Part shown: positions 6,001 to 9,000 of the stretch, piece by piece
Layout of the letters: every line of letters starts with the position of its first letter
Position numbering within the stretch: position 1 is the first letter of the stretch
DNA from: a virus
Taxonomy: Duplodnaviria; Heunggongvirae; Uroviricota; Caudoviricetes
Virus record (IMG/VR): IMGVR_UViG_2737471857_000014
Span: 1-13,106 of that record
Reading direction: 5' to 3' (one strand)
DNA: 13,106 bases
Program-made: the position numbers

Positions 6001-9000
6001 TCAGGCGTAAATGCTCACCGCTTTTGCCTGTAATTTCCGGGTATATCATATTTACGCTCACTCACTTTCAATTTTGTAAATCTTCACGCCCAGCCGCCCA
6101 CCAGGAACGAGCTGACCGCGCACAATATTGATTTCATCAAACTGCTCGTCGTCTATGAGCAGTCCCGCATGTGTCAGTGCATCCAGTGGCGCTTTCAGGA
6201 TATTGTCCAGGTCACGACGACGCTTATCCGGTGGCTCGGCGATAACCTTTATCGCCAGCCTTCCGGGCAGATTTAATTTCAGCCGCTGCTGGCGGACAAT
6301 AAGTGCCACATCACGGCGATAACGCTTACCAGCTTCCGATATAAAATATGTGCTGCCACGGCGTCGCCAGTAAGTATTCACCGTCGGCGGATAAGGCAAA
6401 ACAAACTCTATACGCATCAGTAACCTCTTTTACCCGAGCACGCCGGTTGCAAAGGCGCGATCAAGAAAACGAAAAATTAAATCAATCTGGGAACCATGCT
6501 TTTCTTCGAACGCCTGCGGATCCGCATGAAGCTCGTTGTGATGCTCCCGACACAGCGGCAACGTAAAAATATCGTGGGCCTTTGTTCCCATCCCTCCCTG
6601 ACCGTGACCAATCAGGTGATGGGGATCGTCGGCTGGCTTACCACAACACGCACACGGCTGTGTCTTCACCCAGCGTGTGTATTTCTCATTTACCCAACGG
6701 CGACGTTTAGGTCGCTTCATGAAAGATTCCGGAGACTCCGGATCAACGGCAATGCTGACCACCGTCTTTTCCTGTGGCGAGATTTGTTGCTGGTGGACGT
6801 GAGGCAACGGCGCAAGATTTTTTGTGCGCTGCTTCAGTATGCTGGTGGCGGTCTGCTCTCCCGGTACGATGTCGCTTTCGCGGTAAACCGTGCGGATTTT
6901 TTCCGCACGTAATCCCAGAGAACGACGTAATACTGCCTCCGGTAGCGCGTCCGCCACCTGATTGCAGACCGCCCACCAGGATAATTCAGCCAGCGATAAT
7001 TCCCGTTCCTGTGTACCGCTTATTGCGTGACGTATGACGTCAATCATCCAGGCTGTCAGATTTTGTTGAGCAAGCTGCCCGAGTGATTCGGATGTCTGGT
7101 CGCGCAGCTGGTTGTCGCAGTGCCAGCACAACAACATTGCGCCGGTACCGTAACGATGTATGACGGTTTCACTGTGGTGATAGTCTCCATGAGGCCACTG
7201 GCAGGATTTAACATGACGCAGGAGCCAGTCAGACAGTGCGCCAGCGCCGCCGGCAGCACGAATCACCCGCTCATCGCTGAAAAATGGCAGTAATGATTTA
7301 TCTTCCGCCAGCGGCTGACGAACGGCAGGAACGACTCCGGACGGCAGACCGCGCATGCTTTTCGGTTCCGGCTCCACCAGTACCCGGGGATTATGAAATA
7401 CCTGCATGGATTCACGGCCCGGCTTAAGGACCACCAGCCCGAGTTCCGGCACCGGAACAGGTCGAAGTAATACCCGCACGTTACCTCCAGATTCGTTGCT
7501 GGAATGTGCGGGATGGACGCGGCGGGCGTTCGGAATAAGGGAGCCTGACGTAGATTATCCAGTGACGGTAGTCGAGGCTAAGGGCTTTCTTAAACTCATA
7601 CCCACGTCTGCGGTAGTTATGAATCAGCCATTCGGCCTGTTCTTCAGTGCAGGGATCGTGCTGATACCAGTCATATTTGAATGTGTGAGAACACCGCCCT
7701 TGCCTGCTGGCAGGGGCGGTATCAGAATTGTGATGTTTGGTATTGTGCGCCATCGGTTTTCTCTGCTGGCGCAGCAGGTGCCAGTTGTTCAAGCTGGCGT
7801 GCGGCAATATTGTCTCTGATTTCTGTTGTCGTCAACAGGCAACGTGCTATCATCGAATGGTGTTCTATCCTACTCCGTGAGGTTTACCATGCGTACAACC
7901 CAACAATTCAGCATTACATTAACTAACGAAATGGCTGACATGGTGCGCGCCCGTGTGGCTTCCGGTGCCTATGCTTCAGAAAGCGAGGTCATTCGTGAAG
8001 GGCTTCGCGCACTGAATGAGCGCGATAAAGCAATCGAAGCGTGGTTAACGCATTCAGCCGCCCCCTCTCTTGATTCTATCCGCGAAAACCCAAACAACGG
8101 ACGCTCCATTTCACAGGTTCGCGCCGCGATTCGATCCGGGAAGTAATCTGCATGACATATGAAGTCATCATTACTCCTGAGGCCGAACAACAAATAATCA
8201 ACCTGCACAGGTATATAACGGAGAAAGCAGGGAACGTCATTGCTGACAATTATGCCAATGCGCTTCTTGATTATCTTGATGGGTTTTCAACATTCCCGCA
8301 TCGGGGCAATAAACGCGATGATATTCGCCAGGGGATGCGGGTAACTCATTTCCGCCACAGAACGATTATTGCTTTTGCCGTTGATAGCAGAAAAATCTTT
8401 ATTGTCGGTATCTATCATGGTGGGCAAAGTTATGAAACCGATTTCTTATAAACTTTTACCCACATCATTCCGGTGTTAGAATTAACCGTCCGCCCCCTCT
8501 CTTACTGGCGGATTCGTAGGCTATATAAATCAAAGATCCCGGCTCATGTTTGTGTCGGGATCTTTTTTCGGCGATTTATCCCCAGCGGCAAATCGAATAC
8601 ACCACCAGCGCCACCGCCATCGCAATTCCTACCGTTGTGAATGCTTCAGGCCAGGTCATCGATTCACCTCCTGCTCAATATTTTTAAGGTCATTTTCCGC
8701 ATACAGTATTGCTGTCCTGGCTGCTCGTAACCGGGCTTTGGCGTTTTTCTCTTCACGTTCAAGTTTTGCCACAGCTTCACGAAGAGCATCCCGCTTTGCA
8801 TAGAGTGATTTAATCTCAGACACTATGTTTTCACCGTTTCTCGCACGGTCGAGAACAAGCTCGAACGGATCTAAAGCCAATCCGCATCGGTTACAGGTAA
8901 TCGTACGATTCACTTCTGAAATTGTTGTACGGATATGCTGACAGCATTTTTGCTCGCCGCTTTTTCTGTCGGTTATCACAACGTTGAGGAGTCCTTCCTC

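Follow-up and report, generated by a model that had tools for sequence, protein, structure and literature searches.

A conserved, unannotated 27-codon open reading frame with a predicted membrane-spanning product in a subtilase-toxin lambdoid prophage

The stretch of DNA analyzed here (the window) comprises 13,106 nucleotides (nt) of a virus of the class Caudoviricetes (IMG/VR record IMGVR_UViG_2737471857_000014, positions 1 to 13,106), and the element under study is a micro open reading frame (micro-ORF) of 27 codons on its minus strand. An earlier note on this DNA had described an unannotated, hydrophobic frame of 27 amino acids (aa), preceded by a GGAGGTG Shine-Dalgarno (SD) sequence and coupled to the gene upstream through an ATGA overlap of start and stop codons, and all of these features were located (Table 1). 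Read 5' to 3' on the minus strand, the sequence across the micro-ORF is ...GAGCAGGAGGTGAATCGATGACCTGG... The annotation gap was evident in RefSeq record NZ_AP042480.1 (E. coli OkiPb01676), which is 100% identical over a 651-nt segment and has no coding sequence (CDS) between the 131-aa gene upstream and parE. The peptide has a grand average of hydropathy (GRAVY) of 1.09 and a best 19-residue Kyte-Doolittle window of 2.11, in keeping with the single transmembrane (TM) helix that had been proposed and that is likewise predicted here.

Table 1. Positions of the micro-ORF, its start signals and the surrounding features in the window
Feature	Position	Strand	Remarks
Micro-ORF, 27 codons	8576..8659	minus	ATG 8659-8657, TAA 8578-8576; product MTWPEAFTTVGIAMAVALVVYSICRWG, predicted single-pass membrane microprotein
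Shine-Dalgarno sequence GGAGGTG	8671-8665	minus	5 nt before ATG; within last codons (..QEVNR) of upstream gene
ATGA start/stop overlap	8656..8659	minus	Translational-coupling layout; contains TGA stop of 131-aa ORF
131-aa gene upstream of micro-ORF	8656..9051	minus	CC..CxxC motif, coiled-coil-like C-terminal half; phrog_1621, no Pfam family
16-nt junction motif GGAGGTGAAnnnATGA, second copy	9048..9063	minus	DUF551 to 131-aa gene boundary
DUF551 gene	9581..9051	minus	Precedes 131-aa gene, then micro-ORF (RefSeq annotation of identical genome)
Hairpin AAAGAUCCCG..CGGGAUCUUU	8532..8565		10-bp stem, 13-nt loop; between micro-ORF stop and parE; fold z = -2.9
parD/parE toxin-antitoxin pair	7889-8146, 8152-8451	plus	Convergent to micro-ORF; Pfam
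Subtilase cytotoxin locus	1561-3488	minus	S8 peptidase A subunit 1992-3023; AB5 B-subunit genes 1561-1971 and 3075-3488 on both sides
tRNA-Ile, tRNA-Arg, tRNA-Arg	3885-4131		Precede subtilase cytotoxin locus (RefSeq annotation of identical genome)

The arrangement at the start of the micro-ORF is that of a translationally coupled pair, with an overlap of stop and start codons and an SD sequence contained in the upstream gene, and this layout suggests that initiation at the micro-ORF depends on translation of that gene. No sigma-70-like or otherwise promoter-like site was found on the coding strand between 8660 and approximately 9730. The description of the upstream product as a zinc-ribbon/coiled-coil protein is plausible in view of its cysteine pattern but fared less well, as the matches to zinc-ribbon and coiled-coil profiles fell below threshold. 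The same kilobase is overlapped by 25 ORFs that are 20 aa or longer, so that a frame of 27 codons is not unusual by itself; it is the conservation of the micro-ORF, and not the existence of such a frame, that lies beyond chance.

Conservation was assessed in a pooled set of 135 homologous copies, which comprised 35 peptide variants and 55 distinct 84-nt alleles. An SD-like motif precedes every one of the 135 copies. In 103 of them an upstream ORF of 40 aa or more ends in the ATGA overlap, and in 16 more the upstream ORF ends 3 nt earlier (TGATG), for a total of 119 of 135. The frame is open in all 55 distinct alleles, in a set partly selected on the ends of the ORF, and entropy and the ratio of nonsynonymous to synonymous polymorphism (pN/pS) were computed on codons 7-24, the part that was not fixed by the search pattern. 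Per-column entropy over these codons was 0.55, 0.28 and 0.96 at codon positions 1, 2 and 3, with position 3 more variable than positions 1 and 2 together (Mann-Whitney p=8e-6) and position 1 more variable than position 2 (p=0.019). Furthermore, amino acid replacements were conservative in the sense frame (mean BLOSUM62 score +0.61, compared to -0.60 in the mirrored antisense frame). This substitution pattern, together with the conserved frame, length, SD sequence and overlap, reads as that of a protein under purifying selection. The earlier note had named conservation in related prophages as a check on its proposal, and a reading frame not conserved in homologous regions as its refutation. The outcome is clearly in favor of the gene, with frame, length, start-stop overlap and SD sequence kept across many lambdoid and P1-like phages. 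On these grounds the micro-ORF is very probably a real, translated gene encoding a membrane microprotein, overlooked by annotation pipelines on account of its length of only 27 codons.

The 84-nt ORF matches 1634 of 5426 complete E. coli genomes (~30%), many of them O157:H7 and other Shiga-toxin or subtilase-toxin lysogens in which the same gap in RefSeq annotation exists. These matches amount to 3110 copies; single genomes carry as many as 7, and 163 are located on plasmids of ~90-100 kb. A tblastn search with the peptide returned 94 phage records at 59-100% aa identity, including Shiga toxin (Stx) phages of the Stx1 and Stx2 types, BP-4795, YYZ-2008, ArgO145, the P1-like SJ46 and others. When the segment 8450-9100 (651 nt) was compared by megablast to the 5426 complete E. 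coli genomes, many alignments covered exactly query positions 440-526, a span made up of the ORF with 2 nt ahead of its ATG and 1 nt beyond its stop, and the flanking genes differed on both sides. In twelve loci compared, the ORF was intact throughout, started at an ATGA or ATGATGA overlap with the preceding gene and encoded 27 aa in every case except SJ46 (24 aa). A search of IMG/VR with the degenerate pattern ATGANNTGGCCNGANGC-N46-60-TGGGGNTRR, which permits lengths of 75-89 nt, gave matches on at least 120 contigs, nearly all of exactly 84 nt. In a scan of GTDB with one genome per species, real copies were found only in E. coli and Shigella flexneri; 40 other matches were taken as chance, since they came from unrelated taxa and were mostly of other lengths, and the few that were translated were non-hydrophobic and without an upstream ORF. 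Within these scans, the family is confined to E. coli and Shigella, apart from a Salmonella variant, and its carriers are P1-like and lambdoid phages and prophages, the latter including Stx-converting and subtilase cytotoxin (SubAB)-converting ones.

The peptide itself is conserved in a manner consistent with a membrane helix. Across 34 variants no change was seen at W3, P4, A6 or W26, and position 5 holds D or E throughout, while G11, A15, Y/F21, C/F24, R25 and G27 are near-invariant. Positions 7-24 are hydrophobic or small in all 34 variants, so that the feature of the generic class of single-pass TM microproteins (up to 50 aa), a hydrophobic bilayer-spanning stretch kept in homologues, is present here. 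The only charges are at the acidic N-terminal end (D/E5) and the basic C-terminal end (R25), and some relatives are extended at the C-terminus by ..GKNVRRD or ..GDK. From these end charges the positive-inside rule predicts an N-out/C-in orientation of the helix, and because only three residues follow the helix, insertion would be expected to be post-translational, for which the Pf3 coat protein offers a parallel. Trp3 and Trp26, 23 residues apart, would fit the two membrane interfaces, and G11-x3-A15 has the form of a small-xxx-small helix-packing motif.

The conserved block stands between highly variable flanks. At least five unrelated upstream protein tails were observed, namely ..PEPPQEVNQ (DUF551), ..SVEDILR, ..IEQEVNR (the 131-aa gene of the window), ..AVWRLEVR and ..GIGVEVK, and in each tail type the SD sequence is spelled by the last codons of the upstream gene. 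In relatives the micro-ORF is usually located in the exo-xis region, and in many Stx phages it lies directly behind a DUF551-type gene of the ea22 array. Downstream, the number of distinct contexts is at least 16. In 41 copies a DUF4222/phrog_285 gene, with xis and int behind it, begins 4 nt past the micro-ORF stop, and a hok/sok locus lies next to the micro-ORF in 38 of 131 contexts, e.g. in 933W, where the micro-ORF is situated between L0139 and sokW/hokW. The combination of parDE and a hairpin follows in 10 copies, the window included, and other copies are followed by several different terminator hairpins. The stop codon of the micro-ORF is thus a sharp boundary, with hok/sok, parDE or terminators beyond it. 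The slot directly past the stop holds parDE cargo in the window and hokD or hokW/sokW in other prophages, which marks the stop as a recurrent insertion point for toxin-antitoxin cargo.

The 5' junction is also reused within the window. The motif GGAGGTGAAnnnATGA occurs twice (shuffled mean, 0.43 matches), at the boundary listed in Table 1 and at 8656-8671, between the 131-aa gene and the micro-ORF, and both proteins upstream of these copies (DUF551 and the 131-aa protein) end in ..QEVN(R). Since the motif is repeated and most other phages have the DUF551 tail (..PEPPQEVNQ) immediately in front of the micro-ORF, the 131-aa gene looks like an insertion between DUF551 and the micro-ORF at a reusable linker. 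In K-12 prophage CPS-53, the protein YfdT (end at ~12170-12179 of locus L183) terminates in ..MSQQEVK*, like the ..QEVN/K tail that carries the micro-ORF SD sequence elsewhere; this end, with no micro-ORF after it, may be a remnant of the same junction. A programmed -1 frameshift that would give the upstream protein a TM tail was rejected, as a stop codon interrupts the frame of the micro-ORF 6 codons upstream, in the window as well as in 933W, and no slippery heptamer was seen in the last codons of the upstream gene of the window.

Searches for a known family gave no significant match for the peptide in Pfam, NCBIfam, PHROGs, PADLOC or Rfam. The Hok_Gef model (PF01848, ~50 aa) did not match any of three variants of the 27-aa peptide at E<=1. 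The KdpF model TIGR02115 scored 14.7 bits over 12 residues only (cut-off 26.85), and the neighbors of the micro-ORF are phage genes and not kdpFABC; the DUF883_C glycine-zipper model (PF19029) scored 13.4-14 bits (threshold 27). The PHROG profiles phrog_4612 (E=0.019), phrog_35838 and phrog_38566 gave E values of 0.019-0.15 that varied by variant and N-terminal extension, and none was consistent across variants. In GenBank the exact peptide is present only as a 'hypothetical', 'bacteriophage' or 'prophage protein' in a few submitter-annotated genomes (e.g. AOM45384.1 and ASL59396.1). An exhaustive HMMER search with a 32-aa query against 1.84 billion representatives yielded 25 clusters, almost all of which were 25-50-aa versions of the same ORF. 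No curated family or publication was found for the micro-ORF, whose product would be a phage single-helix microprotein and not a new kind of system.

Part of this obscurity is a matter of naming. Several 27-31-aa copies or fragments without DUF551 carry the NCBI label 'DUF551 domain-containing protein', and clusters at 90% identity mix them with true DUF551 proteins, an artefact of naming and clustering that hides the micro-ORF family. The clustering of the 27-aa peptide with DUF551 proteins of 121-185 aa was considered as a possible fusion and rejected, as those proteins end in ..PEPPQEVNQ without the peptide. One genuine in-frame fusion was found, a 143-aa Ead/Ea22-like coiled-coil protein ending in ..PPLESNK-MSWPDAFAIAGVAMSIALIVFAICRWG, on six metagenomic contigs (locus L180 3001-3432). 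An annotated 143-aa ORF, WP_425401920.1, is present at the same position in E. coli A8 (NZ_CP028766.1 3807324-3807755), with 92.5% nucleotide identity to the fusion. The fusion retains an SD-like GGAGAG 8 nt before the internal ATG; other apparent fusions resemble frame extensions or deletions.

The setting of the micro-ORF in the window was established from the RefSeq annotation of the identical region, in which position x of locus L001 corresponds to window position 18101-x. According to this annotation, the minus strand of the window is the rightward early direction of a lambdoid prophage. Upstream are replication gene P (just outside the window) and then small nin-region genes including DUF1627, a methyltransferase, DUF4014 and DUF551, while past the micro-ORF the order is convergent parD/parE, DUF968, RusA, DUF1133, a Q-region gene, three tRNAs, the subtilase cytotoxin genes and lysis genes. 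The presence of the subtilase cytotoxin locus identifies the window as part of a SubAB-converting lambdoid prophage, and the micro-ORF here lies in its nin region, between replication gene P and the Q-like gene. Two adjacent nin-region ORFs (10097-10640, minus strand) are RefSeq pseudogenes, one lacking its N-terminus and the other containing an internal stop.

The hairpin between the micro-ORF and parE is followed by TTTTTT on the plus strand and by the weaker CTTTGATTT on the minus strand, and is plausibly a bidirectional terminator closing the micro-ORF transcript. It was missed by a consensus scanner because its loop is 13 nt. No Rfam match at E<=1 was obtained on either strand between 7700 and 9700. 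A promoter-like site on the plus strand at 8455-8482 (TTTACC-16-TAGAAT, with an upstream TG), just past the parE stop, faces the hairpin and the T6 run at 8532-8568. It could yield an RNA of ~80 nt that is antisense to nothing annotated; promoter-like sites in this region are not above shuffle expectation.

The reading preferred here combines a genuine coding gene with a product that acts as a single-pass inner-membrane modulator through helix-helix contact, and this combination is considered modestly probable. The gene would share its transcript with the N-antiterminated delayed-early genes, which starts at pR and crosses the nin region in the window, and starts at pL and crosses the exo-xis region in most relatives; with no promoter of its own, it would be expressed only upon prophage induction or infection, and would be translated by coupling to the preceding gene. 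The product would be a single TM helix with an acidic N-terminal tail (M-x-W-P-D/E-A) and a basic C-terminal end (R-W-G, lengthened by K/R-rich residues in some relatives), inserted post-translationally, N-out/C-in, like the Pf3 coat protein. Its near-invariant G11-x3-A15 face would pack against a host or phage inner-membrane protein and modulate that protein during early lytic development, by analogy with the mode of action of AcrZ, MgtS and KdpF. The modulator mechanism, taken separately, is a tentative proposal. It is nevertheless the most reasonable of the three functions that had been suggested in the earlier note, the others being a toxic peptide and superinfection exclusion.

A number of observations weigh against this reading. 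The pN/pS ratio of 0.43 in the sense frame indicates only moderate constraint, and by itself it does not distinguish the sense frame from the mirrored antisense frame, for which the value is 0.36. Mirrored antisense frames always show a pN/pS similar to that of the sense frame. The ends of the ORF may be conserved in part for another reason, as the 3' TGGGGA may be kept as the SD sequence of the next gene in the exo-xis arrangement. Selection of copies also contributes: the IMG/VR and GTDB sets were chosen by a pattern fixing W-P-D/E-A and W-G-stop, so that copies with disrupted ends were excluded, which makes the ORF ends look too well conserved and raises the number of intact frames. The sets gathered without the pattern (tblastn, HMMER etc.) keep the same residues, with the exceptions of 933W (..CRWR), SJ46 (..IFWG) and a few odd variants. 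Furthermore, no homologue was found in lambda (27.5-46 kb), Phi24B (first 12 kb) or K-12 CPS-53 (yfdS region; the only K-12 prophage compared), from which it follows that the gene is dispensable, and in the copy of Shigella phage POCJ13 (locus L011 1501-1584) codon 3 has changed from TGG to TAG, making it a pseudogene. Membrane insertion, orientation, the role of the GxxxA motif and the existence of a partner are all deduced from the sequence. Finally, the peptide strings gave no match in full-text literature, no ribosome-profiling or proteomic record was found, and the strings are absent from the supplementary files searched of a study of small open reading frames (smORFs) in Enterobacteriaceae (PMC11188072) and of a ribosome-profiling (Ribo-seq) study of strain Sakai (PMC5597208).

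Two sequence candidates near or resembling the micro-ORF were set aside. The mirrored antisense ORF (8550..8687, plus strand), which is open in 54 of 55 alleles and in the window runs from within the terminator hairpin into the upstream gene, was rejected because of its negative BLOSUM62 score, the inverted variability of codon positions 1 and 2 and the variation of its flanks among contexts. Lambda orf28 was ruled out as a homologue, as it encodes an unrelated acidic peptide. In POCJ13 an opposite-strand 'hypothetical protein' is annotated over the inactivated micro-ORF copy.

Four rival explanations were considered. A membrane-damaging peptide of host takeover or killing, which like Hok, TisB, Ibs or kil-type peptides would oligomerize and depolarize or permeabilize the inner membrane early in lytic development without a specific partner, would account for a short, very hydrophobic single helix encoded among non-essential early host-manipulating genes and in toxin-rich surroundings (the adjoining hok/sok loci and, in the window, parDE). 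It is considered unlikely, given that translation is coupled to ordinary early genes and not tightly silenced, that genomes tolerate as many as seven copies, and that the near-invariant GxxxA face and the Trp belts suggest specific packing instead of bulk membrane damage. Moreover, no antisense RNA or Rfam family was detected (7700-9700) and no Hok/Gef or other toxin family was matched, while the hok promoter starts past the micro-ORF stop and the hok and micro-ORF modules also occur separately. In a further proposal, the peptide would serve as a membrane anchor or partner of the variable upstream Ea22/EaA/DUF551-type protein, held at a fixed ratio by coupling and recruiting the soluble protein to the inner membrane. 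The natural Ead/Ea22-like fusion, with its 143 aa ending in MSWPDAF..CRWG, and the constant position of the peptide behind a gene of the ea22/eaA/DUF551 array with a start-stop overlap speak for such a role; the at least five unrelated types of upstream partner make a specific protein-protein interface unlikely, the fusions are rare, and only 5-6 residues per side lie outside the membrane to touch a soluble protein, leaving the anchor a doubtful candidate. Equally doubtful is a wider version, hinted at by the natural fusion, in which the hypervariable Ea22/DUF551 early proteins would have the microprotein as their dedicated partner in the inner membrane. Through binding to a host membrane machine (e.g. 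a protease or transport complex), it would be a player so far missed in the program of early host takeover and lysis-lysogeny of Stx and other lambdoid phages.

Another possibility is superinfection exclusion or inter-phage competition, in which the peptide would act at the inner membrane to keep out the DNA of other phages or to block their development. Because no promoter of its own was found and the operons are silenced by the prophage repressor, a lysogen would not make the peptide, and exclusion by a lysogen is disfavored. Small phage membrane proteins often exclude superinfection (T4 Imm, HK97 gp15, P22 SieA), and the gene is accessory, mosaic and often present in several copies per genome, which would fit such a role. 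However, the gene lies inside CI-repressed early operons, PADLOC gave no match, and 27 residues leave almost no extramembrane surface, so that this function appears quite improbable. A comparably low probability is assigned to a functionless peptide, the ORF being a translated spacer or recombination linker that keeps ribosomes at the operon end and carries the next SD sequence and conserved junctions used for module exchange. That the homology block coincides with the ORF ends, that the 5' junction GGAGGTGAAnnnATGA recurs at a second boundary between genes of the window, that TGGGGA can act as the SD sequence for the DUF4222 gene, that the downstream cargo is highly variable, and that the gene is dispensable (the POCJ13 pseudogene; lambda and Phi24B without it) would all be accommodated by a spacer. 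A spacer, however, would not retain 27 codons, a core of TM length, conservative replacements and near-invariant G11, A15 and Y21 across alleles that have diverged at most third positions, and the ORF is kept even where no gene follows, as in the window.

The practical relevance of the micro-ORF lies in annotation and in the genetics of the exo-xis and nin regions of toxin-converting prophages. With a simple family model (27 aa, M-x-W-P-[DE]-A...G-x3-A...R-W-G), copies could be retrieved by the thousand. Both regions are known to influence prophage induction, and hence toxin release, and work on their uncharacterized genes is in progress. In carrier phages, a deletion or tag in the upstream ea22/DUF551-type gene would also disturb the coupled micro-ORF, so that mutant phenotypes could be misassigned. 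If the microprotein were a partner of the Ea22/DUF551 proteins, some exo-xis or nin deletion phenotypes in carrier phages would be due to the unannotated micro-ORF.

The putative microprotein was also compared to known systems. With the exo-xis genes orf60a, orf61, orf63, orf73, ea22 and ea8.5 it shares its neighborhood and presumably its timing, within minutes of infection from pL, whereas the characterized exo-xis proteins are all soluble. Surveys of the exo-xis region (PMC10834534, PMC8614690) mention no membrane micro-ORF, and their model phages, lambda and Phi24B, do not carry the gene. The catalogues of intergenic smORFs in Enterobacteriaceae (PMC11188072) and of global smORFs (PMC11364881) are composed of conservation-predicted microproteins among which hydrophobic or TM products dominate, and the micro-ORF resembles their entries in being predicted by conservation. 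It stands apart in that its peptide strings are absent from the supplementary files searched of PMC11188072 and that Pfam, NCBIfam and PHROGs contain no named family for it. Like the Hok/Gef type I toxins (hokW/sokW of 933W, hokD), the product is a small hydrophobic peptide, and it is often the immediate neighbor of a hok/sok locus; unlike them, it has no Hok_Gef Pfam match, no mok-like leader frame and no Sok-like RNA, is half the size and is coupled to an ordinary gene, the hok promoter beginning, as the sequence is read, past the micro-ORF stop codon.

The Pf3 coat protein, a virion protein of a filamentous phage, is a 44-aa model substrate for YidC-dependent insertion with an N-out/C-in orientation. 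There is no homology between the two, and the micro-ORF is an early accessory gene of tailed temperate phages; the acidic N-terminal tail, single hydrophobic helix and basic C-terminal end are features in common, and the orientation and post-translational route are predicted to be shared by analogy. Small bacterial inner-membrane regulators of ~30-50 aa, such as KdpF, AcrZ, MgtS and CydX, consist of one TM helix, bind a larger membrane protein and are often missed by annotation. The micro-ORF peptide differs from these in that it has no sequence kinship to them, is phage-borne, belongs to an early lytic operon and has no membrane-protein gene adjoining as a partner, and it is like them in its size class, its single TM helix, its very short tails and its small-residue packing motif.

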